Below, one piece after another: positions 8,001 to 26,119 of a DNA stretch of 64,000 nucleotides. The position numbers were made by a program, and so were the translations under genes. Position 1 is the first letter of the stretch, and the number at the start of each line of letters is the position of its first letter. Source of the DNA: Ignavibacteriota bacterium (GTDB lineage: Bacteria > Bacteroidota > Ignavibacteria > UBA10030); NCBI GenBank assembly GCA_963701295.1, contig OY969585.1:1824001-1888000 (forward strand), written 5' to 3'. The notes under the pieces are model-generated. The model was not told the origin of the DNA. It searched no databases and was given only the letters and a program-made list of their open reading frames with translations.

Positions 8001-10007
8001 CTACGCGGCTGCGGTTGTTTGACCTATATCAATACTCCTTAGGACTTTGGCGATCTGTTCGGGCGTTACCGGTTTATTCAAGATTGTGGTTACGCCGTAC
8101 TGCTTGAGCGCTTCGCGATTCGAATCTGAATCTTGTCCGGTGACTATAATTATGGGGATGTCGCTCGTTGCAGGATCTGCTTTAAGGCTGCGCACAAATT
8201 CCAAACCATCGAGATCAGGCATATCGTTATCGGAGATAATCATTTGCGGATGAAACTCGCGTGCAAGCTGTAATGCTTCTGCGCCATCTGCTGCATGCAG
8301 TACATTAGCATTGGGTAACACTCGCTTGATGTATCGAGTATGCAGCAGGCGTATTCCATGTTCGTCATCGACTACAAGAATGTTCTCACCTGCTTCAGGT
8401 TTGCTTTTCGGAAGCGTAATAAGAAAGAGTGTTCCGGTACCAGACGTGCTCTTCACTGAAATGTTGCCATGATGCTTCTGAACAATTTCATGTACGACGG
8501 GAAGGCCGAGGCCGGTTCCTTTTTCGCCTTGTAATCCTTTGCGCGTGTACTTCTCTTCAATTTTGAAAAGCTTATGCACATCATCTTCCGGAATGCCGAT
8601 GCCCGTATCGCGCACGCCGATGACCCAGTGATTACTTTGTTCCTCGATGAGATCTACCGTGACTGTTCCATTGGGTGGTGTGAACTTGAGCGAATTTCCC
8701 AGAAGATTTCCAAATACCTGGCCCAGCATATGTTTGTCACCATAGACCATCACTTTGGGCGGTAAGTTCGTCTGCAGTTTCACTTGTTTCTGAAGGGCAA
8801 GTCCCATCAGAGAATTCAAATTCTTCCGTACAATATCGTGCAGATCAAGTTCCACATGTTCCATCCGGATACGTCCTGATTCGAGACGCGACCAATCGAG
8901 CAGCTTATTCACGAGTGAGAGTTGGTCTTGTGCTGCTTCTTGTATATATGCCACAAATTGTAAGCGGTCTTCGGCTGTGAGCTGGTCGTTCTCTTTCAAC
9001 AAGATGTCGCAGAATCCCAGGATGCTGCTGAACGGAGAACGAAGGTCGTGTGATAAGATCGAGAAGAGCTTGTCTTTCTGTGCGTTCAAATCTGATAATG
9101 CGTTCTTTGATTTCTCCAGCGCCCAAACGTACTCCTGCAATTTCTTTTCCATTGCCTTGCGCGCGGTAATATCTTCCAACACGCCTTCGTAGCTGATCAC
9201 TTTTCCATCTTCATCCACTACCGTGCGGGCATTTTCCAGAACTGTGATGATTCTACCGTTCTTTCTCTTCAGGCTAATTTCCGTATTGACCACGTACCCT
9301 TTTTGATGCAGCGTTTCTGTCAATGCCTTGCGTTCTTCGGGATAGGCATATGTGTCGCGGGCAATGTCAAGGTCCGCAAGTTCATAGAAGTTGTTGTACC
9401 CAAGCAGCTTAAGCAATGCACGATTAGCGTTGATTAATTTTCCATTCGGACTGCTTTGGAACATCGGCATCACTGAGTTTGCAAATAAGCCGCGATATTT
9501 TGATTCGCTTTCGGTCAGAGCAGTGTGAGTAATTTTCTCGGCAGTAATATCACGGAATTGTGCAAGCATCAGCATTCGCCCATTATCCGATTCGACATAG
9601 GAATCGCACACTTCAACATCGAGGATTTGGTTGGTCCAGAGCACGAATCTTTTTTCATGCTGCAGTTCTGCCTCTCGATCCTTGAATCGTGATTCATACG
9701 CACGTGCTATCTTCTCACGGTTTTCCATGTCGGCATAGACACAGGTGAAGTGCTTGCCGATGAGTTCTTCAAACGTCATTCCCACAAGCCGGCAGTATGA
9801 CGGATTGACGGAGATGATCGTCCCTTTTTCATCTGTCAGTCTCATCCCTTCGTTCGAATTATCCCAGATGAAAGAAAGCACCTTTGCGGCGTTTTGCGGT
9901 CTATTCTCAGGGGATTTCTGCTTTTTTGCTACTCCTATCGATCTTGGTGTAATGGCTGCTGTCGGATTGAAAGGGATTATGTTGCCACTGATTGCTGCTA
10001 ATTCCAT
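8001..10007 (-). CDS. Cytoplasmic hybrid sensor kinase (PAS-PAS-HisKA-HATPase-REC)
   Basis: SHDLRSP H-box, NLLGNSLKFT, DTGIGI, GTGLGL; C-terminal REC (VVDD...SDNDMP...KP). Confidence 0.93.
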   Translation of the reverse strand: MELAAISGNIIPFNPTAAITPRSIGVAKKQKSPENRPQNAAKVLSFIWDNSNEGMRLTDEKGTIISVNPSYCRLVGMTFEELIGKHFTCVYADMENREKIARAYESRFKDREAELQHEKRFVLWTNQILDVEVCDSYVESDNGRMLMLAQFRDITAEKITHTALTESESKYRGLFANSVMPMFQSSPNGKLINANRALLKLLGYNNFYELADLDIARDTYAYPEERKALTETLHQKGYVVNTEISLKRKNGRIITVLENARTVVDEDGKVISYEGVLEDITARKAMEKKLQEYVWALEKSKNALSDLNAQKDKLFSILSHDLRSPFSSILGFCDILLKENDQLTAEDRLQFVAYIQEAAQDQLSLVNKLLDWSRLESGRIRMEHVELDLHDIVRKNLNSLMGLALQKQVKLQTNLPPKVMVYGDKHMLGQVFGNLLGNSLKFTPPNGTVTVDLIEEQSNHWVIGVRDTGIGIPEDDVHKLFKIEEKYTRKGLQGEKGTGLGLPVVHEIVQKHHGNISVKSTSGTGTLFLITLPKSKPEAGENILVVDDEHGIRLLHTRYIKRVLPNANVLHAADGAEALQLAREFHPQMIISDNDMPDLDGLEFVRSLKADPATSDIPIIIVTGQDSDSNREALKQYGVTTILNKPVTPEQIAKVLRSIDIGQTTAAA

Positions 10008-10492: not shown

Positions 10493-11872
10493 CTAAGTCT
10501 TTATCTTATACTTTTCTGCAAGTCGATAAAGTGTTGCGCGTCCGATCTTTAATTTCATTGCAGCTTCTGCAATGTTGCCGTTTGCAATCTTGAGAGCATG
10601 CCGAATAGCGTTTTCTTTGAGTTTTTCTAATGGAGTAATCGTTTCTTGGCTCTCGAAGGAAAGGGAATGTTCTTTCGAGTCTGTCTCAGCATGTCCGTAG
10701 GATTGAATTGAGATAGGCAATTCTTTTTCCGTCAGTATCTGTCCGTCTGTTAAAACCATACCGCGCTGAATGACGTTTTCGAGCTCGCGCACATTGCCCG
10801 GCCAGGGATAATTGTAAAGCAAATCGAGAGCTTTATGCGAGAATCGAATCTTGGGCTTCCCAAGTTCCTCTCCAAGTTTCTTTAAAAAATAGTCGGCGAG
10901 CAAAAGGATGTCCGATTTTCGCTGGCGGAGTGGAGGAAGTATAATCGGAAATGATGAAATACGATAATACAGATCTTCTCTAAAATTCTTTTGTTTCACT
11001 TCTTCCCAGAGATTGCGATGAGTAGCGCAAATGAGTCGGGCATCAGTTTTGATTAATTCGCTGCCGCCGACCCGATCGAATTGTTTTTCCTGAATAACAC
11101 GAAGGATTTTTGCCTGCAGACTTAAATCCAATTCACCAATTTCGTCTAAGAAAATCGTGCCTCCGATTGCTTGCTCAAATTTTCCAATTCGCCGCTGAAC
11201 CGCACCGGTAAATGCACCTCGTTCATGGCCGAAGAGCTCGCTTTCCAGAAGGTCGTGAGGAATAGAAGCACAGTTCACGACCACAAAAGGGCCGCTTTGA
11301 CGGTTGCTGTTATAATGAATCGCACGTGCAATGAGCTCTTTGCCTGTTCCACTTTCCCCAAGAATGAGAACGCCAATATCGATCTGTTTCACTTTATTGA
11401 CGAGTTTGAACACTTCCTGCATTTCCCCGCTTTGTGAAACGATGTTGTCGAAATGCAAACGGGTCCCCACGCTTTCCCGTAAATCTTCCACTTCGCGGGA
11501 TAGGGATGCGAGCTTGAGAGAATTCTTTATTGCGATTTCTAGCCGTGGAAAATCTATGGGTTTGCTGAAATAATCTGCAGCACCAAGCTTCAGGGTTGTG
11601 ACCGCTAGTTCAATACTTCCTTGAGCTGAAAGAATAATGACAGGAATATTGGGATTACGCTGTTTGATTTCTTTTAACACATCAACGCCGTGGATGTCAG
11701 GAAGCATAAGATCCAACAAGACAAGATCCGGAAGTTCCGTCAGCTGATTGAGAAAAGATCTTCCGTCTGAAAATACTTTTGTCGTGTATCCCCACCGCTG
11801 ACCGACCCACATTTCAAGCAGCTTCGAAATAGTTATTTCATCATCGACAATATAGATTCGTTCTGTGCTCAT
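10493..11872 (-). CDS. Sigma54-dependent NtrC-family enhancer-binding response regulator (REC-AAA-HTH_8)
   Basis: GESGTGKE, ESELFGHERGAFTGA, FLDEIG and WPGNVREL motifs; Fis-type HTH; ATG at 11872 with GAGG RBS. Confidence 0.96.
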   Translation of the reverse strand: MSTERIYIVDDEITISKLLEMWVGQRWGYTTKVFSDGRSFLNQLTELPDLVLLDLMLPDIHGVDVLKEIKQRNPNIPVIILSAQGSIELAVTTLKLGAADYFSKPIDFPRLEIAIKNSLKLASLSREVEDLRESVGTRLHFDNIVSQSGEMQEVFKLVNKVKQIDIGVLILGESGTGKELIARAIHYNSNRQSGPFVVVNCASIPHDLLESELFGHERGAFTGAVQRRIGKFEQAIGGTIFLDEIGELDLSLQAKILRVIQEKQFDRVGGSELIKTDARLICATHRNLWEEVKQKNFREDLYYRISSFPIILPPLRQRKSDILLLADYFLKKLGEELGKPKIRFSHKALDLLYNYPWPGNVRELENVIQRGMVLTDGQILTEKELPISIQSYGHAETDSKEHSLSFESQETITPLEKLKENAIRHALKIANGNIAEAAMKLKIGRATLYRLAEKYKIKT

Positions 11873-11920
11873 TGCTGCCTCAGGTGGTGTTGGCAAGAAA
11901 GAAACATTTCTGCTGAAGGA

Positions 11921-12652
11921 TTATGAAACAATGGGAATTCGGATGATAAAGGTTGATCCTTCTCCAACTTGACTTTGCACAGTGATGTCGCCGCCGTGTT
12001 GATCAATAATGTGCTTTGCGAGAGCCAGTCCAACTCCGGTACCATGTGTTTCTTCATTTGGGCGATAGAGTTTCCCAAATCGTTTGAACAAAAAGGGAAT
12101 GTCTTTTTCCGGAATTCCCGGACCATCGTCTTGCACCGAAATAAGTGCTTGTTTGTCGATTGCTTCTGCTTTGAGAGTGACAGAGCCTCCGGGTTTTGTA
12201 AACCGGATAGCATTGTGAAGCACTTGGAATAGAGCGTTTGCTATTTTATCAGAATCGCACTTTGAAATAATTGGATCCTTTGGCAGATCTTTGGAAATTG
12301 TGATGGATTTGCTCAACGCCGGTCCGATGATAAGTGCTATTGCGCGATATATGATTTTTTGAATTTCAGATTCTTCAAACAAGAAATGAGCACGTCCTTG
12401 TTCAAGAGCGTCAAGTTCGATAAGGTCACCCACAATTTTTGCAAGTCGTAGTCCTTCATTCCGGATGTAATGCGCGTATTCTGTGCGTTGTCTTTTGTCG
12501 ATCTGCTCGTTTTCTTCGAGCATTGCCGCAAATCCTATAATGGAAGTAAGCGGAGTGCGGAATTCATGAGAAATTTGTGTAACAATTCGGTTCTTCAATC
12601 GCTGGATGCCAAAGAGATCCATTTCAATAGTAGTACTATTTTCTGTTTCCAT
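11921..12652 (-). CDS. Sensor-less histidine kinase (HisKA-HATPase)
   Basis: SHEFRTPLTSI, NAIRFT, DDGPGI and GTGVGL motifs. Start moved to the ATG at 12652 (AAGGGG RBS) because a sigma54 promoter lies inside the longer ORF. Confidence 0.88.
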   Translation of the reverse strand: METENSTTIEMDLFGIQRLKNRIVTQISHEFRTPLTSIIGFAAMLEENEQIDKRQRTEYAHYIRNEGLRLAKIVGDLIELDALEQGRAHFLFEESEIQKIIYRAIALIIGPALSKSITISKDLPKDPIISKCDSDKIANALFQVLHNAIRFTKPGGSVTLKAEAIDKQALISVQDDGPGIPEKDIPFLFKRFGKLYRPNEETHGTGVGLALAKHIIDQHGGDITVQSQVGEGSTFIIRIPIVS

Positions 12653-12717
12653 AGTTATTGCCCCTTGCCTCAAAGACATATTCATGTGATGAACTACGTC
12701 GTTATATTGTAAGTGAG

Positions 12718-12732
12718 GCAATCTATATGCCA
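12718..12732 (-). promoter_or_regulatory. Sigma54 -24/-12 promoter for the kinase/activator genes
   Basis: Minus strand reads TGGCAT-ATAGA-TTGC, with canonical spacing. Confidence 0.8.
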
Positions 12733-12807
12733 GCATTGATTTTACCATGAAAACTGTGGAAATTGATTAAATACATGAGTATAGAATATCTCTCATTTTC
12801 TTTTGTT

Positions 12808-12970: not shown

Positions 12971-12985
12971 TGGCACGCAGATTGA
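12971..12985 (+). promoter_or_regulatory. Sigma54 -24/-12 promoter for the pilin-like operon
   Basis: TGGCAC-GCAGA-TTGA about 60 nt upstream of the ATG at 13046 (-12 GA variant). Confidence 0.72.
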
Positions 12986-13045: not shown

Positions 13046-13534
13046 ATGAAAAAGTTAATGATGGTTCTCGCGATTGGCGCAATGAGCATGTTGCTTGTGG
13101 GATCTGCTTATGCTCAGTCAACTACCACTCAAACTGTTAATCTTGTCGTTGGATCAGTTTACAAGATGACTGTATCTGGCAATCCAGGTCAGTTGAATAT
13201 CACCACAGGAACAGCTGGTACAGATGCTTTAACGCCGGTCAGTGACGCTACAACGACCTACAGTATCACCCAGAACTATGGACCTACGGTGAAGATTACT
13301 GCAGGCTTGGGTACCGCACTTGCAGCCGGATATACGTTGTCACTTACTTTGGCAAGCTCCAAAGGCACAAGCGCTGGACCCGTTAATCTTTCTACAACCG
13401 CTGCCAGCGTTGTAACTGGTATCGCAATAGGAGCTGATGCAAACAAGACGATTACTTATACATTTGCAGCAAATGCCTCTGCTGGAACATTGGCTTCGAC
13501 CAATGAGGTTGTTACACTGACATTGACTAACTAA
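13046..13534 (+). CDS. Secreted pilin-like subunit 1 (probable major subunit)
   Basis: Sec signal ending AYA|Q; Thr/Ala/Gly-rich beta strands; TQTVNLVV N-terminal strand, KITA motif, C-terminal VTLTLTN. Confidence 0.75.
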   Translation: MKKLMMVLAIGAMSMLLVGSAYAQSTTTQTVNLVVGSVYKMTVSGNPGQLNITTGTAGTDALTPVSDATTTYSITQNYGPTVKITAGLGTALAAGYTLSLTLASSKGTSAGPVNLSTTAASVVTGIAIGADANKTITYTFAANASAGTLASTNEVVTLTLTN

Positions 13535-13577
13535 AATTTAATAAATTATTATCATACCTAACTCAAAGGAGACAACA

Positions 13578-14057
13578 ATGAAAAAGTTAACGATGGTCCT
13601 CGCGATTAGTGCAATGAGCATTTTGTTTATAGGATTTGCTTATGCTCAAACAAATATCGCCACACAAACATTCAACCTTGCCGTTAATTCGATTTCTAAA
13701 ATAGTCGTATCAGGCAATCCGGGAAATTTAACGATCACGACTGCAGTACCTGGTTTCGATCCAACACCAGTTTCTGACAATTCGACAACCTATACTTTCA
13801 CACATAACGATAAGGCTAATGGTGCAAAGATTACTGCAAGCTTGGCTCCTGCCCTTGCATCCGGATATACTTTGACAATTGGTTTGGACGGCAAGACCCC
13901 AGTTGATATTTCTGCCTCTGTTCAGGATGCTGTGACAGGTATCGCAGCGGGAGCTTATACAGGAAAAGCGATTGCATATCAATTCTCGGCTTTAGCAAGT
14001 GCCGGGGTATTAGCATCGACTCCCGAGACTGTTACACTGACAGTAGTTGCCCTATAA
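13578..14057 (+). CDS. Secreted pilin-like subunit 2 (paralog of subunit 1)
   Basis: Near-identical signal peptide and RBS region to subunit 1; TQTFNLAV, SGNPG, PVSD, KITA, VTLTVV. Confidence 0.75.
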   Translation: MKKLTMVLAISAMSILFIGFAYAQTNIATQTFNLAVNSISKIVVSGNPGNLTITTAVPGFDPTPVSDNSTTYTFTHNDKANGAKITASLAPALASGYTLTIGLDGKTPVDISASVQDAVTGIAAGAYTGKAIAYQFSALASAGVLASTPETVTLTVVAL

Positions 14058-14071
14058 ATTATCCCTTTTCG

Positions 14072-14110
14072 ATTACCTCGGAGCTTTGTTGCTCCGAGGT
14101 AATTTATTTA
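14072..14110 (+). terminator. Intergenic hairpin (terminator or mRNA stabiliser)
   Basis: Perfect 13-bp stem ATTACCTCGGAGC/GCTCCGAGGTAAT with a 6-nt loop, followed by TTATTT. Confidence 0.75.
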
Positions 14111-14135
14111 ACACTATTAATTTAATGGAGCTACA

Positions 14136-14633
14136 ATGAAAAAGTTAATCGTTCTCGCCGCCTTTGTTACACTGAGTGCCTTCGCTTTTCAGAATGCGTT
14201 TTCTCAAGCTGCAAATCAGGCAAATCAGCTTGTCACGCTTGAAGTTAAAGTAGTGAATAAGATAAATATTTCTGGCCCAGTTTCATTATTGATAGATGAT
14301 GCTATTCCTGGAGGCGCTGGCCTGCAGCCTGTTTCCAATAATGCGACATCATACAATATTACACACAATGGTTCTGCAACAGGCAAGATTACAGCCAGCA
14401 TTAATTCAGGTCTGCCGGCTGGAATTACGTTACAACTTACATTAGCAAGCACTCTTGGAACAAGCGATGGAATTCAGGATATATCGAGCGCAACAACTGC
14501 TCTCAATGTTGTGGAAGGTGTTAAACAAGGTAAGGATGCAACTCAAATGATAACCTACAACTTCTCAGCGACACCGGAAGCTGGTGTATTTGCTTCAACA
14601 GTAAAGACGGTTACATTAACGGTTACAGACTAA
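14136..14633 (+). CDS. Secreted pilin-like subunit 3
   Basis: Signal AFS|Q; NQLVTLEV, KITA, ITYNFSA, VTLTVTD. Confidence 0.75.
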   Translation: MKKLIVLAAFVTLSAFAFQNAFSQAANQANQLVTLEVKVVNKINISGPVSLLIDDAIPGGAGLQPVSNNATSYNITHNGSATGKITASINSGLPAGITLQLTLASTLGTSDGIQDISSATTALNVVEGVKQGKDATQMITYNFSATPEAGVFASTVKTVTLTVTD

Positions 14634-14662
14634 TTAGTTTTTTGCAGGGAGACTAACTAACT

Positions 14663-14707
14663 CGCGGAGGCTCAGATTCCATACTTGAGCCCCCGCGGTT
14701 TTGTTTT
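14663..14707 (+). terminator. Intrinsic terminator after subunit 3
   Basis: CGCGGAGGCTCA/TGAGCCCCCGCG stem (11 of 12 pairs) then GTTTTGTTTT. Confidence 0.75.
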
Positions 14708-14738
14708 GTGTAAGGGACATGAGATGTGAGTACGGGCA

Positions 14739-15344
14739 ATGAAACCTACAAAAAATCAAATAGAAATTGGTAAGTATATGTTGTATCTGATTACGAGGAT
14801 TACTATATTTAACCGCATTGTCATGAGAACAAGAATGATATCGCGCTTCTGCAAACGAACAATTTCCTCCATAGTAATCACGTTGTTTTTGATCTTGTTG
14901 CCGAGAATCACTTTTAGCGCAACAACAGCGCAGCACACTGTTACTGTCATCGTTAATGCGATTACAATTATACAAATCAGCGTAGGGACTATCAATCTCA
15001 ATATACCAGGTGGCGTAACTGCGGTTGTAGTTGCAGGGCAAGATCAGATGACTGTCACCGATAACACCAGTAAGCTTCTTTGGGGTACCAACAGCAGTCC
15101 CAGGAAGATTACAATCATAACGAATCTTGTTACACAAAAGTTTACATTGCAAGCATTAGCCATGAGTCCAACAGTTGGCACAGCGGCGTCGGCAGCGACA
15201 CTCTCGACTACAGCTTCTGATTTTATAACAAATATTGCAAGAAGTTCAGGTAGTGCCACTGTGCAATATACCGGTATCGCTTTAGCATCAAAAGGAACCG
15301 GAACGGATTCGCACACAATCACATTTACTATTACAACGCAGTAA
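14739..15344 (+). CDS. Secreted pilin-like subunit 4 (minor); true start probably 14823 or 14835
   Basis: Hydrophobic signal then AQHTVTVIV, RKITI, QYTGIA, ITFTITTQ. Confidence 0.7.
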   Translation: MKPTKNQIEIGKYMLYLITRITIFNRIVMRTRMISRFCKRTISSIVITLFLILLPRITFSATTAQHTVTVIVNAITIIQISVGTINLNIPGGVTAVVVAGQDQMTVTDNTSKLLWGTNSSPRKITIITNLVTQKFTLQALAMSPTVGTAASAATLSTTASDFITNIARSSGSATVQYTGIALASKGTGTDSHTITFTITTQ

Positions 15345-15348
15345 GAGT

Positions 15349-15828
15349 ATGAACAGATCGCATCGTTTTAGAATATCTCATCTCCTGTATGTTTTGGGAT
15401 TTGTGTTCTTGATCGCAATGAAAGGAGTAGGACAGACAAGTATTACAATGAATGGAGGTAATCAGACCATGACAATTACTACGGGAATTGCCGGTGGTCA
15501 ATTGGTAAATGTCATCAACACGACCTGTTATCTTACATACCATGGGTCGCTCACCCATGTCAAGAAAATTACTGTCAGTACCACATGCCCAGGTCAAAGT
15601 TTCAATTTAAGTGTGGTAGGTACTGTGACTGGTGGGGGCACTGCACAGGCGGCAGTGACACTCACTACTGGAATGGCGAGCACCGATTTTGTTAGAGATA
15701 TTCCTGTGAATACGACTAATGGCAGATGCACATTGAACTATACTGCATCAGCTACATTTGCTCAAGGCAATAGTACTGACTTTGGCAACGATGTCTATAC
15801 CATCACGTACACTATCGTAACACAATAA
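15349..15828 (+). CDS. Secreted pilin-like subunit 5 (minor, lacks the N-terminal strand)
   Basis: Signal GVG|Q; KKITV, LNYTASA, ITYTIVTQ; three Cys. Confidence 0.7.
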   Translation: MNRSHRFRISHLLYVLGFVFLIAMKGVGQTSITMNGGNQTMTITTGIAGGQLVNVINTTCYLTYHGSLTHVKKITVSTTCPGQSFNLSVVGTVTGGGTAQAAVTLTTGMASTDFVRDIPVNTTNGRCTLNYTASATFAQGNSTDFGNDVYTITYTIVTQ

Positions 15829-15841
15829 ATAGGTCATCACT

Positions 15842-16666
15842 ATGAGATACCTTTCTTCTCCATATCTGCGCGGATTGTTTCTTGTTTCCATGCTTGCTTC
15901 GTGTCTCACTGCGCAAGTTTCGATCATCGGCGAACTGAGCCAGGACAAAGACGCTCTTCCGGGTGATGTGTACACAGGAACAATTGTCATTCGGAATGAT
16001 ACGAATGAACCGCAAGAGGCGAAGGTGTACCAGACCGATTACACGTTTCAATTCAATGGGACGAATAATTATGGTGAACCGGGAGTGTTTCCTCGGTCAA
16101 ATGCAAAATGGATTGCATTCAGCCCGGCATATGTTACTCTGCCGCCTCAAGGGACTATGGCTGTGAATTTTACTGTAACTGTTCCGAAAGATACAACGCA
16201 TAAGCTGATCGGTACTTATTGGAGTATGTTGATGGTGGAAGGAATTCAGAAGGGATCGGCAGAATCCTCTATTCGCCCGAAAGATGCAAAGGCGCAAATG
16301 GGCATTATGCAGACCATCCGCTATGGAATTCAAATTGCCACATCCATTGCAAAGACAGGAACAAAAAAGATTCAATTTGTCGGCCACGACGTTATTAAGA
16401 AAGAAGGCGGCAAACGCATATTGCAGATTGATATTGAGAACACAGGGGAGATTGCAATGCGGCCGGACGTTTATGTGGAACTTTTTGACGAACAAGGAAA
16501 ATCACTTGGAAAGTACCCCGGTATAAAGTACCGCATCTATCCCGGCACTTCTGTTCGCCAGTCCATTGATGTAAGCAGTGTTGCACCAGGGACCTATAAA
16601 GCATTAATAGTTGTTGATGCAGGCGGTGATGATGTATTTGGAGCACAATACGCATTGAAATTCTGA
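15842..16666 (+). CDS. Periplasmic two-Ig-domain pilus chaperone-like protein (PapD/DUF916-like)
   Basis: Signal LTA|Q; WIAFSPAYVTLPP..V.FTVTVP, GTYWSMLMVE, alternating strand GIMQTIRYGIQI, second domain IENTGE...IYPG. Confidence 0.65.
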   Translation: MRYLSSPYLRGLFLVSMLASCLTAQVSIIGELSQDKDALPGDVYTGTIVIRNDTNEPQEAKVYQTDYTFQFNGTNNYGEPGVFPRSNAKWIAFSPAYVTLPPQGTMAVNFTVTVPKDTTHKLIGTYWSMLMVEGIQKGSAESSIRPKDAKAQMGIMQTIRYGIQIATSIAKTGTKKIQFVGHDVIKKEGGKRILQIDIENTGEIAMRPDVYVELFDEQGKSLGKYPGIKYRIYPGTSVRQSIDVSSVAPGTYKALIVVDAGGDDVFGAQYALKF

Positions 16667-16675
16667 GTACCGAAA

Positions 16676-19600
16676 TTGAAAACATTGTTGACACATTATC
16701 CGGTTCGGCTTAACCGGATTTTTTTTATCTGCTTGCTTGCAGCTTTGCCATTGTTGTACGGATTTGCCCGCCAGCAAGAAAGCAAAGTAGTTTGTGATGC
16801 AGTTCAATCGCAAATCGAGGCAAAGCCTGGGACAATTGCTGCTGCATCAATCAAGGTAACGAATTTAACTTCTGAACAGCAGGCATACGATGCTGTGATC
16901 GATCTTCCTGCAGGATGGAGACCGGTTATTCGAGAATTTCCATTCGAAATCAAAGCGGGAGATGCAGATGTTCGTCTCATAACATTTTCCATCCCTTCTG
17001 ACGCTCCTGCAAATCGTTATGAAGTTCGTTATTCTGTTCGGGACCATGCTTCACCTGTCCATGAAGCTATTGTGTCCGTAGAAGTTGTTGTTGTTCGTGT
17101 CGTTCAATTAGATCTTGCACTTCTTCAGGCGCCTCGATTCGTTATTGCCGGGACTACGTTTACAACAGCGGTTCTCGTTACGAACCAAGGAAATTCAGCG
17201 AGTTCTGTGCAGATCAGCTATAGGAGCTCGAATGACTTCCCGGTCCGATTAGACTCGACAATAATCAATTTAGCTCCAAAGGAGACCAGACGAGTACAGT
17301 TTTTCGTTACATCTGATGAAAAATCAGGGAAAGTGAACCATACACTTGAAGTCGAAGCGAAGTCAGGGCAAGATACAACAATCAGGGTTAAAATTTCGAG
17401 CGTAGTAGAAGTCATTCCGCGCATGACAAAAGTTGAAGAAGAATATCTCCTGTATCCTGTTTCTCTCAGGGTGCGAGAAGTTGGTCAAGACGGAAAGTTC
17501 TCCCCGCAAGGAGAAGTCTATGGGTATGGAAGTTTGAACGAGAATAGAACGGATCGGCTTGAGTTTCTTTTCCGGGCGCCGGAAACACAAACAGTCTCAA
17601 CATTGGGACAAAGGGATGAATACCGAATCTCGTATCGAAGAGACAGTCTTGAATTATATGCGGGAGATCAAAATTATACACTTTCGACATTGACAGAATT
17701 AGGGCGCTATGCTTCAGGTATCGGGGGGAGGATAACAAGTGGTGCGATATCAGCCGGTGGATTCTATAATTCAACAAGGTGGACAATATCAAAACAAAAG
17801 GAAGCCGGCGGATTCCTCGATTATGATGTTATGAAAGGCGCTACTCTTGGCGTGAATTATCTCAGCAAGCGAGAACAATTTTCCAGCGATATAATGAGTG
17901 TGCAAGGCCTCTTTAAGCCGTTAACCGGCACAATCCTTAATCTTGAATATGGTACCGGTGTAAAAGACGATAAACACGATGATGCTTTTGCGGCCCTGCT
18001 GCAAGGCAACCAACGATGGATTGCGTACGATCTACGTTTTGTTCAAGCGGGGCCAGATTTTGGAGGCTATTACCAGGACATTGATTTTTTCTCGTCGAGC
18101 ATTAATCTTCAACCTATGCGAAACGTGCGTATTGAGACTTATATCAGGCTGGAAAATAGAAATCTCGCACGCGATACGAATCAGACTGATGTACCGCATG
18201 ATGCCTCTTATCAAGTCGGTGTTGGATACTTGGATTATTTCTCAATTTACTATCTGAACAACAGTCAGCAAGATCAATCTGATAGTTCAAAGTACCGAAC
18301 ACGGGAAGACGCGATTCAAGCCAGAGTTGGGTACAACTTCTCTGTTGCAAATGTCTATGCAAATATGGATTACGGAACAACGCGAGATGAACTTCTAATA
18401 AAAAAATCACCTTACAAGCGCTTAGCTCTTTCTGCGAGTTTCAATCCAATTGCGAAACAGAGCTATAGTACTTCATTTGAGTATACCACCTCTAGGGATC
18501 CCAACACAGGGGAGGATCAGGAACGTTTATCAGCGAACCTGAGCGCATGGATTCTCTTTGGCCAATCGACCCAAGCACAATTAAATATATACGGAAGCCG
18601 TATCATTGCATCGATACCGCAAACATACAGTATGTTCGAAGCATCCATCGAGCATGTGTTTCCATTCAACCATAAGATCACACTGCATGCGCGTATCACC
18701 AACATCACACCGTCTATTACTAACAGAGAAGCCGCTTATACTTTCGAATATGCTATTCCGATAGGAATTCCCATCAAACGGATTACAGCGGTTGGGCAGC
18801 TCCGCGGCACCATCATAGATGAAAATGGAAGAGGTATTGCGAACGTACTGATCAATATTGGTGATGCAGCGGCTTTATCCGATAGGCACGGCGGATTCTT
18901 TTTCGCATCACTGAAGCCTGGTTCTGTATTTCTCACAGTGGATAAGGCAAGCATTGGATTTGATCGAATAACAACTCAACCTATGCCGATGGAAGTGCTC
19001 GTTCGCGGGGGCGAAGAAACGAATCTGATACTTCGGGTTACTAGAAGCGTGGCAATTGCAGGCGATGTACTTCTGTTTAGCGCAAAGGAGCAAGGATTTT
19101 TAGATACATCCAATGCTCTTACTGAAATGGGTGGAAAGTCAGGTGTCTTTCTCGAACTTTCTAACGGCGCTGAAATGAATCGGAGGGTAAGTGACAATAA
19201 GGGAAGGTTTCTTTTTGCAGATTTGTGCCCTGGACAATGGGTACTTAAAGTGATTGGCGGCGACATACCCGAATACTATACTATTTATCCAGATTCAATG
19301 AGGATTGAGTTGTTACCCGGTGAAAGAAAAGATGTTACTTTTCAGCTTCGGCCTCGCAAACGCACGATTAAGATGTTGCAGGGAGATTCGTCGATACTAG
19401 AAACACCTCCTGTAATTGAAAGGAAAGACACGCTTTCTTCACTCATGAACGCTCCGAAGGTGTGTATGGTTACGTATAATGAGATGAGAAAAGGTTACGT
19501 TCTTCAAATCTCTTCGTGGCTCACATGGAAGAAAGCAAATCGAGTAGCGAAAAGAGCAGATAAGATTGTTGGGCTTAAGACGTTCAAAGAAACTGCCAAT

Positions 19601-19699
19601 ATACCATCTCTAGGACGGCGATACCGAGTGTTCATCGGTATTTTCAAAACCAGAGAAGATGCTGTTGTCTTTTGTTACCAGTTCGATTTCAATTTGTAG
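16676..19699 (+). CDS. Usher-like outer-membrane protein: N-terminal Ig-like (NEW3-type) domains, beta-barrel, two carboxypeptidase-regulatory-like domains, C-terminal SPOR domain
   Basis: LPAGW and VTNQGN Ig motifs; about 400 aa of amphipathic aromatic-ending strands; SDRHGGFFFASLKPG and SDNKGRFLFADLCPG; GYVLQISSW...YRVFIGIFKTREDA. Confidence 0.65.
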   Translation: MKTLLTHYPVRLNRIFFICLLAALPLLYGFARQQESKVVCDAVQSQIEAKPGTIAAASIKVTNLTSEQQAYDAVIDLPAGWRPVIREFPFEIKAGDADVRLITFSIPSDAPANRYEVRYSVRDHASPVHEAIVSVEVVVVRVVQLDLALLQAPRFVIAGTTFTTAVLVTNQGNSASSVQISYRSSNDFPVRLDSTIINLAPKETRRVQFFVTSDEKSGKVNHTLEVEAKSGQDTTIRVKISSVVEVIPRMTKVEEEYLLYPVSLRVREVGQDGKFSPQGEVYGYGSLNENRTDRLEFLFRAPETQTVSTLGQRDEYRISYRRDSLELYAGDQNYTLSTLTELGRYASGIGGRITSGAISAGGFYNSTRWTISKQKEAGGFLDYDVMKGATLGVNYLSKREQFSSDIMSVQGLFKPLTGTILNLEYGTGVKDDKHDDAFAALLQGNQRWIAYDLRFVQAGPDFGGYYQDIDFFSSSINLQPMRNVRIETYIRLENRNLARDTNQTDVPHDASYQVGVGYLDYFSIYYLNNSQQDQSDSSKYRTREDAIQARVGYNFSVANVYANMDYGTTRDELLIKKSPYKRLALSASFNPIAKQSYSTSFEYTTSRDPNTGEDQERLSANLSAWILFGQSTQAQLNIYGSRIIASIPQTYSMFEASIEHVFPFNHKITLHARITNITPSITNREAAYTFEYAIPIGIPIKRITAVGQLRGTIIDENGRGIANVLINIGDAAALSDRHGGFFFASLKPGSVFLTVDKASIGFDRITTQPMPMEVLVRGGEETNLILRVTRSVAIAGDVLLFSAKEQGFLDTSNALTEMGGKSGVFLELSNGAEMNRRVSDNKGRFLFADLCPGQWVLKVIGGDIPEYYTIYPDSMRIELLPGERKDVTFQLRPRKRTIKMLQGDSSILETPPVIERKDTLSSLMNAPKVCMVTYNEMRKGYVLQISSWLTWKKANRVAKRADKIVGLKTFKETANIPSLGRRYRVFIGIFKTREDAVVFCYQFDFNL

Positions 19700-19875
19700 C
19701 ACCACCCTGTCACAGTTTTTATTCTACTATCTCTTTAGTCTGTAGCACCAACATTGTAGAAAATTCAGTTTCCTCAAATTGATGCAGCACTGCTCTAAGC
19801 TTTTGTTTCTTTGTTAATTCCTTCCTTTTCGACGAATTAGCCGGTTTATTCAATATCTATATTGCCTAATGTGCT

Positions 19876-19890
19876 TGGCACCTAAATTGA
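19876..19890 (+). promoter_or_regulatory. Second plus-strand sigma54 promoter
   Basis: TGGCAC-CTAAA-TTGA, same pattern as 12971. Confidence 0.68.
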
Positions 19891-19909
19891 AGGATTGAGG
19901 TAAGAGACT

Positions 19910-20482
19910 ATGAAAAACCGACAATTACATATGAACACAACTTACAGCTTGATAAACAAGAGTCTTTTTGCGTATCATCGTATATCCACTTTTGTGAAAA
20001 CCATTTCTATCATAGTTATAATGATAGTCGTTGCCAGCGCTGGTCTAATGGCGCAAGGTCGTGGCAACAGTGCGACTCAATCGGTTACATTGGAAGTGAA
20101 GCCAATCGCTAAAATATCTGTTGCGGGCTACTTGACGCCTCTTATTATCAATGATGCTCTTCCCGGATCTGGCCTCGCATCTGTGAGCGATGAGAATACT
20201 AAATACAGTCTCGTAACAAATATTGATAATATGAAAATTGTCGCATCCATTAACGACAGGATGCCCACCGGGACGAAGTTGATGATCAAATTAACGAGTA
20301 GTAAAGCGGCGAGTGCTGGACTCGTTGATTTATCCAACGCGTTAACTCCGGTGGATGTTGTCAGAGGCATCAAAAAAGGAAGCGATGTGGGTCAATCTAT
20401 TAGCTATACCTTTGCAGCAAATGCCGAGGTTGATGATATTCCGTCACAATCAAGAACGATTACACTAACGCTTACGAATTGA
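19910..20482 (+). CDS. Secreted pilin-like subunit 6; start may be 19931
   Basis: Signal LMA|Q; ATQSVTLEV, VSD, KIVAS, ISYTFAANA, ITLTLTN; clear paralog of subunits 1 and 3. Confidence 0.75.
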   Translation: MKNRQLHMNTTYSLINKSLFAYHRISTFVKTISIIVIMIVVASAGLMAQGRGNSATQSVTLEVKPIAKISVAGYLTPLIINDALPGSGLASVSDENTKYSLVTNIDNMKIVASINDRMPTGTKLMIKLTSSKAASAGLVDLSNALTPVDVVRGIKKGSDVGQSISYTFAANAEVDDIPSQSRTITLTLTN

Positions 20483-20491
20483 TTCGAAGTC

Positions 20492-20860
20492 ATGAAAAAA
20501 AATTCTTCCATAGGTTTGCTGTTCATTCTTATTCTTTTTGTGAGTTCGCAGGCGAATTCGCAAATGAAAAACTCGGCAACGCAGACGATAGTGTTTGCAG
20601 TTAACCATTCAGCAAAACCTGCTCTGAAAGTCCTTGCAAACTCTCCAAATTTAAACCTGTCTTCGAACTCCTCTGGAACGGCCGCGTTTCGGAATTCATT
20701 GGAAAAAATGACTGTGAAAGTGACGATTGCTGAAACTTCAACCAGCACAGCAGTATCGAAGAATACTTCAGATATTCATATGGATATAAAATCTATCCTT
20801 CAAGCAAGAAATTCAATCATGTTTGATGAAATTCCAACGATAGTAACAATTACCGAATAA
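20492..20860 (+). CDS. Shortened secreted pilin-like protein 7
   Basis: Signal ANS|Q; NSATQTIVFAV, VKVTI, C-terminal IVTITE; about 40 aa shorter than its paralogs. Confidence 0.55.
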   Translation: MKKNSSIGLLFILILFVSSQANSQMKNSATQTIVFAVNHSAKPALKVLANSPNLNLSSNSSGTAAFRNSLEKMTVKVTIAETSTSTAVSKNTSDIHMDIKSILQARNSIMFDEIPTIVTITE

Positions 20861-23928: not shown

Positions 23929-26119
23929 ATGAAGCGCATGTTCATCTTTTTGCTATTTGTCATCACGGGTAACTCTTTACTTGCTGCTCAAGACACCATT
24001 CCCGCAAATAATTCTTATATACAATATTATGGACGATGGGATATGTCCGTTCCAACACAACCGGCGCATGGATGGCCGGGAGTGTATGTGACTGCTGTCT
24101 TTCAGGGAACAAGTATCGGTGTCATTACCGACGATAACGCTTGTTGGTATAATGTTTTTATCGATGATACGCTTGTGCAAATATTCAAGGGAAGTCTTTA
24201 CGGGTCAAATATGTATACGCTGGCTTCCGGACTTAAAGATACGGTACACACCATACTTTTCGAACTGCGGTCGGAAACTTCCTGGACCAAATTCGGGTTT
24301 TACGGATTTGTTCTGGATAGCGGAAAAAGTCTTGTCGCCCCGCCTGCAAAACCGCCGCGAAAAATAGAATTTATTGGAGATTCATATACGAGTTCTTCGG
24401 GCAACGAATGGACCCAATCGACTTCAGCGCCGAGCGACTCATTCAGCAATATTTATAAAGGATTCGGTTCGATTATTGCTCGGCATTATGGGGCACAGTA
24501 TATGATGACAAGCCGCGGGGGCATCGGACTTGTTCATGATTATACAGGAAATTACGGCAATAATCTCCCTGCATTTTATAATAGAACATTTTTTTATTCA
24601 CCAACACCTAAATGGGATTTTTCAAAATGGGTTCCCAATCTGGTTGTCATCTGTCTCGGGCTCAACGACTATAGCGGATGGGGAGGATATTCCACTCCGC
24701 CCACCGATCAATGCGCTCAATACTATAGGACCAGTTATCATAATTTTATCGCTACCATTATGGGCGTTTATGTAGGGACAAAAATTCTCTTGGTTTCTCC
24801 AAACGGTATCGATTGGCTTAATACAAATATCAAACAGGTGGTACAGGAAGAAAATTTCATGGGGCATACAAATGTATTCTTCGGTGCATTCCCATATTAT
24901 TTCGATCCCGAAGCATACGTCAATTCTGGACATCCCAGTGTTGCAACGCATCAAAAAATTGCCGATACTTTAATTTCTTTCATTGATTCCATCAATGCAT
25001 GGACTCCTTACATCGGCACAAAGGCGCCGTACATAACCAACATGCCATCTTCTCCTACGACAACGTACAGTTCATCATATACATTGAAAGTACAGACAAA
25101 CACATATGCAACAATGCGTTACAGTACCCGAAAATAAACCGTACGAACAAATGGAAAATGTCTTCACAACAACCGGAACTCAGACGCATTCTGTGGTTCT
25201 TTCATGTGTCAACGGTAATACATATACCTATTATATGCGCGCCATTGATATTTACGGCAATGCTATGGACACATCCGCAGTGATAACCATATTTGCTGAT
25301 ACGACAAAAAAGGCTGTCGATTGGACATCGCTCGATTATGATCAGTCCGCATGGAGCAAAGGAACCGCTCCTCTGGGAAATGGAACCGGCGTTACGACTC
25401 AGGTCGGTAATGTAACGACGGCATATTATAGACATATATTTCCTATCGATACCAGTTCGAGCTTTTTTTTGAAAGTCAATATTAAGGGACACGACGGTGC
25501 AATCGTTTATTGCAACGGGACAAAGATCGCAACTTTCAATATGTTTGCCAATTCCGGAGTTACGTATTCTACTCTTGCCGATAATATATTCAATTTCGAT
25601 ACGGCAATTGTATTTACAAAAGCGAACGGATACAACAGGTTATTGCAAATTGGCAACAATATTATAGCAGTTGAAATGCACACGGGAAACACCAGTACTC
25701 AAAATTCCAGCTTTGATTCATACGTTATCAATACATCGGACAACAGTTATATATACTCATTAGGTTCCGATTGGAATTATTATGCCGGCGGTTCTACTCC
25801 GCCGAATCAAGTGAATGTCGTCAGCGTCGTAGCAAACGAATCCAATCTCATTCCCATGAAGACGGATTTACTTCCCAACTATCCGAACCCTTTCAATCCG
25901 TCAACGACTATACAGTACGTGATATCTTCCCGGTGCATGGTAACACTTAAGGTCTATAATGTCCTGGGGGAAGAAATTGTGATATTGGTGAACGAACAGA
26001 AACCTGTTGGATCGTATAAGGTTCAATTAAATGCCAATAAGTTTGCGAGCGGCGCATACTTTGCTGTCCTTCGTGCCGGAAGCTTTATGAAGACAACAAA
26101 GTTGCTTTTATTGAAGTAG
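23929..26119 (+). CDS. CE2-like SGNH acetylesterase with a T9SS C-terminal sorting domain; apparent 1-nt insertion at CCC 25127-25129
   Basis: RKIEFIGDSY, CLGLND and GHP in ORF 23929-25137; NYPNPFNPSTTI...KLLLLK in ORF 25106-26119; the frames join at RYST/ENKPY. Confidence 0.85.

Follow-up and report, generated by a model that had tools for sequence, protein, structure and literature searches.

A predicted donor-strand pilus operon of an Ignavibacteriota bacterium with a WxLIP-related chaperone and an usher-like pore

The window that we analysed, a stretch of 64000 nucleotides from contig OY969585.1 of an Ignavibacteriota bacterium, contains at positions 13046–20860 a nine-gene operon which, to judge by its genes and by predicted models of their products, most probably encodes a donor-strand fibre system that works like a chaperone–usher pilus. 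It comprises seven small pilin-like proteins, a chaperone and an usher-like outer-membrane pore, and it falls outside the PapD/PapC families and also outside the WxL family as that is defined. An earlier note, made from the letters of the window without database searches, had read these genes as a divergent donor-strand-complemented fibre and had named as evidence to the contrary self-complete pilin folds, a large protein that forms no barrel, and components that fail to co-occur; the models and loci examined in the present study support that reading and gave none of these outcomes. What the note had missed is that the chaperone is kin to the Gram-positive WxLIP proteins and not to PapD, that the predicted barrel departs from the usher blueprint (approximately 26 strands and no inserted plug), that separate roles are likely for subunits 5 and 7, and that the operon carries sigma-54-type promoters.

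RESULTS

Pilin subunits and their predicted fold

All nine open reading frames (ORFs) of the earlier note are present on the + strand at their positions in the ORF list, and a signal peptide can be read from the sequence of each product. Pilin 1 (13046–13534, 162 amino acids) is the likely major shaft subunit and is followed by two shaft-type paralogues with a donor strand, pilin 2 (13578–14057, 159 amino acids) and pilin 3 (14136–14633, 165 amino acids), then by pilin 4 (14739–15344, 201 amino acids), a minor subunit with a donor strand that may be an adaptor adjoining the tip, and pilin 5 (15349–15828, 159 amino acids), which has three cysteine residues and no donor strand. The genes for the chaperone (15842–16666, 274 amino acids) and the pore protein (16676–19699, 1007 amino acids) come next, and behind them lie pilin 6 (19910–20482, 190 amino acids), a full pilin with a donor strand and its own promoter motif, and the degenerate pilin 7 (20492–20860, 122 amino acids). 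From the position of the signal peptides, translation of subunits 4 and 6 probably begins later than at the first ATG, that of pilin 6 probably at a GTG near 19995.

The seven small proteins are indeed paralogues, with 23–57% identity to pilin 1 (57% for pilin 2, 45% for pilin 3, 30% for pilin 4 and 38% for pilin 6). A profile of pilin homologues recovered six of them from the whole genome (3.64 Mb, 99% complete) with E-values from 1e-69 to 8e-26 (8.6e-49, 6.3e-54, 7.6e-31 and 4.4e-47 for pilins 2, 3, 4 and 6 respectively); it found no other member of the family elsewhere in the genome at E≤0.1, and it missed pilin 7 too. Subunit 7, although a paralogue of the others, is not a full pilin, and its core is short and poorly conserved. 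The N-terminal pattern that had been given for every subunit other than subunit 5 is matched literally only in subunits 1 and 6; subunits 2, 3, 4 and 7 carry variants of it, an alternating Q/H-x-V-x-L/V/F-x-V strand, and subunit 5 does lack the strand. Pfam and NCBIfam gave no meaningful match for the seven pilins and none that names any of 150 pilin homologues, and searches of PDB sequences with the pilins found no relative.

The AlphaFold2 model of pilin 1 (150 sequences; mean predicted local distance difference test score, pLDDT, of 95.4) is a β-sandwich that begins at residue 16 and leaves residues 1–15 without strand pairing. In this it resembles a donor-strand pilin of the chaperone–usher kind rather than a self-complete fold: the immunoglobulin (Ig) fold is incomplete, and an N-terminal donor strand (mature residues 1–13, approximately 13115–13153) is left free. 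The first nine Foldseek ranks for this model are held by the CfaB, CS17 and CS20 pilins (best E 2e-3; none reaches E≤0.001). A wide structural search again placed CfaB at the top (Z 8.3, root mean square deviation, rmsd, 3.2, 104 residues aligned), next CS17 (8.1), cannulae (7.5), EcpA (7.4) and the PapG pilin domain (7.1), with CooA at 6.5; these Z values gain weight because every one of the first ten rows is a pilin or a related subunit of a filament. WxL pilin structures are absent from these lists, which neither shows nor excludes a shared fold. The alignment with an environmental pond fibril, TLP-1b (PDB 9ikk), covered 133 of the 139 residues of the pilin (Z 7.0, rmsd 4.0, 12% identity), and environmental cryo-electron microscopy sets may hold fibres of this pilin family.

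Predicted chaperone–pilin complex

A model of the chaperone together with pilin 1 scored 0.82, against 0.01 for the best of three controls; the mark that we used for such scores is reached by 116 of 157 solved pairs and by two of 215 mismatched pairs. The runs agreed in at least 91% of contacts, and the pLDDT of the partners was at least 89. The chaperone strand predicted to act as donor (G1-like; the GIMQTIRYGIQ strand, within mature residues 128–140, encoded at 16295–16333 on the + strand) is the one that the earlier note had singled out, and it contacts pilin residues 128–139 in matching order (132:132, 134:133, 136:136, 137:137 and 138:138). We read this as a chaperone strand that would lie parallel to the last strand of pilin 1, as in donor-strand complementation, a geometry shared by chaperone–usher and WxL chaperones according to the available part of the Elr pilus preprint (bioRxiv 10.64898/2026.10.17.759780). 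The model thus shows what is expected of a chaperone–usher system, a periplasmic two-Ig chaperone with a strand parallel to the last strand of its pilin. In addition, the first strand of the chaperone and a hairpin at residues 49–53 contact the pilin in the model, and within the donor strand Arg136 is conserved in 143 and Gln140 in 142 of 150 chaperones. The predicted complex supports binding between chaperone and pilin.

Subunit roles

To examine the roles of the subunits, we measured how far the first body strand lies from the core of the signal peptide. The measurement covered 247 complete pilins with scores of 30 bits or more, to the exclusion of those that were truncated, masked or low-scoring, and two inverted copies were set aside. 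This distance is at most 28 in 50 of 51 loci for the pilin gene directly before the chaperone gene (median 22), whereas for the other pilins it is at least 30 in 188 of 194 (median approximately 37), the six exceptions being three duplicated donor-less genes and three apparent measuring errors. More distant pre-chaperone genes fall below the score cut-off, and their alignments also start at the first body strand. A subunit without a donor strand can only accept one and so fits the tip position, and pilin 5 is the likely tip (first) subunit. Pilin 7 keeps the first and last strands of the family; among 21 hand-picked homologues (97–156 amino acids) the QxVxFxV-type strand is present in all 21 and the last strand in 19, the core being variable, and a pilin 7 profile has matches in 27 loci at 39 bits or more. 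As the mirror case of pilin 5, it is likely to be a terminator or base subunit.

The chaperone is related to WxLIP proteins

A search of the PDB with a 150-sequence chaperone profile returned seven sequences at E≤10, two of them significant, and both are Enterococcus faecium EfmWxLIP1 (9i25 and 9i1y, E=1e-5), with an alignment that covers both domains including the donor strand (profile positions 38–265). Consistent with this relationship to the WxLIP proteins (DUF916–DUF3324), PF06030 matched 21 and PF11797 six of the 150 family members at E≤0.01, whereas the PapD_N/PapD families (PF00345/PF02753) are not among the 19 families matched by them. The chaperone of the window itself lies below the WxLIP gathering cut-offs (18 bits compared with 27.3 for PF06030; no match to PF11797). 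Eleven PapD-type chaperones of E. coli K-12 score at most 7 bits against the profile (6.8% in profile–profile comparison) and EcpB and EcpE score below 0 bits (5.9%). The profile–profile probability with five DUF916-type proteins is 99.5% (E 7e-23), a set that was found via our own query's match and is biased towards closeness; the PDB search is free of that bias.

The connection to PapD is indirect, only through other Bacteroidota chaperones. Six more distant chaperones from other genomes of that phylum (91–156 bits; loci L094–L098 and L108), one of which exceeds the PF06030 cut-off, resemble as a set WxLIP (98.6%) as well as the PapD set (95.5%, E 1.5e-8) in small alignments, which hints at a bridge between the two families. 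Their loci have different pilin families, and five of the six have pore-like genes of 930–1025 amino acids.

A late hydrophobic helix, as defined by a hydropathy window, occurs in none of the 150 chaperone family members, whereas all five WxLIP-type proteins have one at the same cut-off; the chaperone is thus predicted to be soluble, without a membrane anchor. The earlier note had excluded a lipobox from the operon; this stands for the pilins (one of 120 homologues has such a motif) and not for the chaperone, which has a lipobox-like LASC at residues 18–21. This motif is probably there by chance: it recurs in only 19 of 120 chaperone homologues, for which reason we rejected a lipoprotein, and the mature N-terminal glutamine is conserved.

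A tblastn search of 72556 plasmids with the chaperone gave eight records, from five Deinococcus, two Paenibacillus and one Nonomuraea, and the one Paenibacillus gene that we examined sits in a WxL cluster. The neighbours of the chaperone in the Atlas are mostly unnamed, with one cluster having WxLIP_HBD in 12% of its members.

The pore protein is predicted to resemble an usher without a plug

The large protein was predicted as a barrel, as had been proposed. Its AlphaFold2 model (109 sequences; pLDDT 88.9) contains two N-terminal Ig domains (approximately 16787–17416), a barrel of approximately 26 strands (approximately 17444–18781), two carboxypeptidase-regulatory-like C-terminal domains (approximately 18794–19354, also matched by Pfam), which are β-sandwiches, and, behind a disordered linker, a SPOR-like domain (approximately 19466–19681; Pfam E=0.012) with helices and strands at residues 899–970 of the model. 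Counted from the secondary-structure list, the barrel consists of 26 consecutive strands over mature residues 225–670 with gaps of no more than approximately 13 residues. Since this number is even, both ends of the barrel would be periplasmic, which suits a SPOR domain. A barrel with a periplasmic N-terminal domain and two C-terminal domains is the architecture of an usher, and with the whole chain as query FimD occupies Foldseek ranks 1–9 (best E 1.2e-14, template modelling score approximately 0.27), PapC also being among the top matches.

With the barrel alone as query in the structural search and VIA-align, MtrB was the best match (Z 20.6–21.9, 410–412 residues aligned), and PapC and FimD followed with Z 15.9–17.2. 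FimD residues 139–656 align only to residues 228–634 of the pore model. Because 410–412 of the approximately 443 barrel residues align to MtrB, there is no insert of the size of a plug, and the pore is predicted to lack the inserted plug, unlike the 24-strand ushers. The plug belongs to the standard mechanism of ushers, and a predicted usher without one raises the question of how such a very wide pore would be closed and opened.

No usher family of Pfam or NCBIfam (PapC/FimD or TcfC/CooC) matched the pore protein, and PF00577 had no match in the genome and matches in two of 14 controls. The first C-terminal domain shows a weak likeness to EcpC (80 columns, 26%, probability 2.8%). The pore profile found only look-alikes of the C-terminal domains in the PDB, for example NOMO2 and carboxypeptidase M. 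The Atlas has no model of the pilin or the pore protein; the ten named clusters listed near the pore are all ushers (0.85–0.87), which we treat as a lead only. Among homologues the C-terminus varies: one (L107:6572–9550, − strand) ends in LysM instead of SPOR, and deltaproteobacterial homologues of approximately 930 amino acids (e.g. in L062) have neither.

Distribution of the operon

When GTDB genomes were scanned with the alignment of the chaperone, 154 relatives emerged, and the counts of loci given here rest on the best 80. The pore gene directly follows the chaperone gene in all 80 loci with profiles from the protein searches, and again in 80 of 80 with richer profiles that were partly trained on the same loci; with the latter, a pilin gene lies upstream in all 69 loci that have more than 1.5 kb of upstream sequence. 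The three components therefore co-occur as predicted. The closest locus (86% chaperone identity) is labelled Ignavibacteriaceae, and others are labelled Ignavibacteria, Deltaproteobacteria, Pirellulales, Phycisphaerae, Rhodothermales, Zixibacteria, Spirochaetaceae, Verrucomicrobiota and Longimicrobium, among others, these being the depositors' own labels, some of which look wrong. In protein clusters, the chaperone profile matched 600 at E≤1e-30 and 2862 at E≤0.001, almost all unnamed among the matches seen. Within its own phylum, 87 of 301 genomes have chaperone matches, mostly weak; in its own family, eight of 14 have one at E<1e-100. A full-length pore (E≤1e-20) was found in four of seven members of the family and in none of the 143 other genomes of the class, so it is patchily distributed. 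Searches of plasmids with the pilin 1 protein and the pore DNA gave no match.

The cultured bacterium Deinococcus deserti VCD115 has a four-gene version on plasmid 2 (DEIDE_RS15110, 15115, 15120 and 15125), whose genes score 60, 214, 145 and 27 bits against the pilin, chaperone, pore and pilin profiles respectively. DEIDE_RS15110 is a pilin with a donor strand. The frame of DEIDE_RS15125 continues upstream into a stretch that looks like a signal and, as in the tip subunit, begins with the first strand of the body. Because a donor-less gene precedes the chaperone across the loci and D. deserti pairs one donor-bearing with one donor-less pilin, we take this division of labour to be conserved; this version is also a minimal set for testing. 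RefSeq names the D. deserti chaperone (L088:7941–8711) ‘FimB/Mfa2 family’, a name that we rejected as apparently due to a marginal Pfam match (21.7 bits compared with a cut-off of 21.2).

DISCUSSION

Proposed assembly

In the mechanism that we propose, signal peptides would send all nine proteins to the periplasm, where the chaperone would complete the Ig fold of each pilin with its strand 128–140, parallel to the last strand, as modelled for pilin 1. By analogy with ushers, the chaperone–pilin pairs would dock on the periplasmic Ig domains of the pore. The first to enter would be pilin 5, which lacks a donor strand and would form the tip; pilin 4 would come next and then pilins 1, 2, 3 and 6, with the N-terminal strand of each presumably displacing the chaperone from the previous subunit. 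Pilin 7, which could donate a strand and has a collapsed acceptor body, may end the fibre. The SPOR domain would tie the pore to peptidoglycan, and sigma-54 together with a divergent response regulator would be likely to switch the operon on. In this mechanism, a tethered Ig domain would be the most likely seal of the idle pore; that this is the Ig domain just before strand 1 is a guess, and one that falls a little short of an even bet. A bound cargo that fills the idle pore, as MtrA fills MtrB, is the less likely alternative. The fibre would probably serve in surface attachment or biofilm structure; the operon encodes no large tip adhesin.

Several observations weigh against a pilus of this kind. 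The predicted template modelling score of the pore (0.59) leaves the placement of its domains around the barrel undefined, MtrB outranks the ushers as best match of the barrel, and no sequence link joins the pore to FimD or to the EcpC barrel (profile 0.1% with FimD and 2.8% with EcpC). The pilin fold reaches middling scores (Z 8.3 at best; lowest Foldseek E 2e-3), and the score of the complex may derive from likeness to solved chaperone–pilin complexes. Moreover, five genomes of one genus (G110, G170, G178, G230 and G286) have close chaperone homologues (E 1e-75 to 1e-83), and none of the five has a pilin of the family, while three have weak C-terminal matches to a different pore gene; on this evidence the chaperone can occur alone. 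In G110 (locus L099) the chaperone gene stands after a response regulator among genes that look photosynthesis-related.

Alternative explanations

The same chemistry might build only a short capped stub, or a small surface complex of few subunits in the pore, and no long fibre, which we consider improbable. The lack of a multi-domain adhesin and the many loci with single copies of several distinct subunit types would suit such a complex, as would the resemblance of the barrel to MtrB, which holds its cargo permanently. However, the shaft-type pilin genes have multiplied, to as many as five near-identical copies (locus L037); they stand first, behind a promoter motif and before strong stem-loops, which suggests a high copy number; and the sole donor-bearing pilin of D. 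deserti can only repeat itself. Even less probable in our view is that the large protein lets subunits out as a common large porin or cargo channel would, and is not an assembly platform; polymerization would then take place in the periplasm or beyond the cell, with the chaperone as sole helper, as it does in the usher-less pili of the WxL type and of the candidate phyla radiation (CPR). The N-terminal and paired C-terminal Ig-type domains stand in an usher arrangement and the whole-chain search puts FimD first, and a CxxCH haem motif is absent from the operon; in addition, a soluble chaperone needs an assembly site, and the pore gene is its neighbour in every one of the 80 loci. A porin would nevertheless fit a barrel that lacks the plug and the sequence signature of an usher and for which MtrB scores structurally above the ushers, and the closest characterized relative of the chaperone works without an usher, as described in the accessible part of the preprint (bioRxiv 10.64898/2026.10.17.759780).

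That the small proteins are self-complete Ig-fold proteins of an S-layer or matrix, in a gene order that mimics a pilus operon, is very improbable. No Pfam or NCBIfam pilin family matches them and middling Z scores can reflect a common fold, but complete folds would hardly explain why the N-terminal strand is free, why the chaperone is predicted to complement the pilin in parallel, or why loss of that strand is conserved in the subunit of one position. Known filament and conduit types were also considered and rejected. By simple patterns, none of the nine proteins has a type IV prepilin peptidase motif, an LPxTG sequence or a CxxCH motif, the first two as the earlier note had stated. A type IV pilus was discarded for want of that motif and of any match to such a family, sortase anchoring because LPxTG is absent from the last 50 residues of all nine, and a porin–cytochrome conduit of the MtrAB type for the lack of CxxCH. 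The type V pilus of Bacteroidia (Fim/Mfa), with its lipoprotein prepilins, was set aside on the rarity of a lipobox-like motif among pilin homologues (one of 120). No curated family of Pfam or NCBIfam names any of the nine as part of a pilus, and the homologues that bear a name come from Bacteroidota and Ignavibacteria and are called either hypothetical proteins or after a SPOR domain alone. Together with the label of the closest locus, they suggest that the host is a member of the Bacteroidota of Ignavibacteria type.

Comparison with known systems

The WxL/Elr pilus of Enterococcus and other Bacillota (pilin ElrD, chaperone ElrE) shares with the present operon a homologous chaperone, with both Ig domains and the donor strand aligned, and, from what is accessible of its description, parallel complementation of the last strand of the pilin and an order in which the tip subunit comes first and the base last. 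It differs in that the chaperone here is predicted to be soluble, lacks the C-terminal transmembrane anchor and falls below the Pfam cut-offs, that the pilins are not WxL domains by sequence and have no LPxTG, and that an outer-membrane barrel is present in two-membrane hosts. The WxL domain PF13731 matched none of 150 pilins and their profile gave 4.6% with a Paenibacillus WxL protein, a shared fold still being possible. The preprint on the Elr pilus (bioRxiv 10.64898/2026.10.17.759780, October 2026), in the portion available to us, confines the WxL system to Bacillota, defines WxLIP by both Pfam modules above the gathering cut-off, treats the LPxTG base subunit as optional in WxL operons and gives no link between WxL and classical chaperones at E≤1e-20; that portion does not contain the words ‘Bacteroid’, ‘diderm’ or ‘Deinococc’.

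The alternate (α) chaperone–usher pili (CFA/I CfaA/B/C/E, CS1 and EcpA–E) provide the best fold matches for the pilin and share major pilins without cysteine, the layout of pilin, chaperone and usher, and the weak likeness of the C-terminal domain to EcpC. Their two-domain adhesin contrasts with the single-domain tip here, the pore architecture is different, and the chaperone has no sequence link to EcpB/EcpE. The classical pili (FimC/PapD and FimD/PapC) share the predicted geometry of complementation and the N-terminal and two C-terminal periplasmic domains of the pore, whereas the present system has no PapD_N, no PF00577, approximately 26 strands, no plug and an extra SPOR domain; the classical usher is described, in the accessible text of PMC13721041, as a 24-strand barrel with an internal plug. 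The Pam pilus of CPR bacteria, compared by its description in the available part of PMC13278184, likewise has donor-strand pilins, PapD-like chaperones that were recognized through their structure, and a single-domain tip pilin, but its chaperones are membrane-anchored and there is no usher. MtrB, a 26-strand barrel with MtrA inside it, is the best match of the barrel alone (MtrCAB, PDB 6r2q; Z 21.9, rmsd 4.5, 410 aligned), a match at 7–8% identity that may reflect barrel size only; the pore differs by its extra Ig, C-terminal and SPOR domains and by the lack of any cytochrome motif in the operon.

Put together, these comparisons allow a tentative proposal to which we give somewhat less than even weight: that the system forms a branch of its own within the donor-strand pili, widespread among two-membrane bacteria and with its own plug-less 26-strand pore gated by a mobile Ig domain or by cargo, and that its chaperone and the Bacteroidota relatives bridge WxL and PapD. 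If this were true, the WxL and PapD pathways would be one lineage, in which a chaperone–pilin core is paired with a sortase, a classical usher or a 26-strand barrel. In the present system the chaperone, a relative of WxLIP, has an outer-membrane pore as its partner, and the chaperone family lies below the Pfam cut-offs used in the Elr preprint, as far as the accessible text gives them. A literature search of titles and abstract openings, with most subscription papers outside its reach, found no description of this operon; ‘chaperone-usher’ with ‘Ignavibacteria’ gave no paper, and ‘DUF916’ with ‘usher’ and ‘Gram-negative’ gave only that preprint, itself accessible in part (bioRxiv 10.64898/2026.10.17.759780).

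Regulation and neighbouring genes

A response regulator with receiver, AAA+ and Fis helix–turn–helix domains by Pfam (10493–11896, − strand), of the sigma-54-dependent type, is divergent from the operon and is its likely activator; a sigma-54 activator homologue lies upstream in 25 of 35 loci that have more than 7 kb of upstream DNA, and rpoN is present in the genome. The sequence TGGCAC-N5-TTGA, which by the sigma-54 consensus we take to be a −24/−12 motif of that class, occurs upstream of pilin 1 (12971–12985, + strand) and again upstream of pilin 6 (19876–19890, + strand), and a TTGC version on the − strand at 12732 belongs to a short kinase gene. Of 53 loci, 26 have the motif in the 350 nucleotides 5′ of the first pilin, and 17 of 30 have it 5′ of the pilin that comes after the pore gene, whereas one of 502 control windows taken from within pore genes contains it; the loci are related and not independent, and the pattern has 102 matches genome-wide. 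In Ignavibacteria-type loci the −12 element is mostly TTGA and not the usual TTGC, which is found in three of four proteobacterial or deltaproteobacterial loci, possibly reflecting a lineage-specific sigma-54 preference. A PAS hybrid histidine kinase (8001–10007) and a sensor-less kinase (11921–12748, − strand) flank the response regulator.

Two stem-loops lie on the + strand within the operon. The one 3′ of pilin 2 (14071–14104; −25 kcal/mol, z −7.9, none of 200 shuffles as good) is a possible attenuator or mRNA stabilizer and does not appear in the list of a simple terminator scan. The one 3′ of pilin 3 (14663–14699; z −3.6, none of 200 shuffles as good) is followed by a T-rich run and is likely to lower expression of the minor subunits, chaperone and pore. 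Scans for sigma-70 promoters and terminators gave no excess over shuffles (18 compared with 20.9, and eight compared with 6.3, respectively).

The same genome has a second pilus-like operon (L093, G000:C1:1477946–1483031) with two small proteins, one of them weakly DUF4402, a chaperone scoring 52.8 bits to the family, an 865-amino-acid usher-like protein that has no Pfam usher match and a trailing protein of 117 amino acids; similar operons are found in L103 and L106. At L048:8930–13843 the counterpart of the operon described here is split over several frames, possibly through assembly errors. In the window itself, at 23929–26119, two ORFs (an esterase-like one of 402 amino acids and one of 337 amino acids) overlap by 32 nucleotides and resemble one protein split by a frameshift, the second ending in what we read as a secretion-tail-like stretch.

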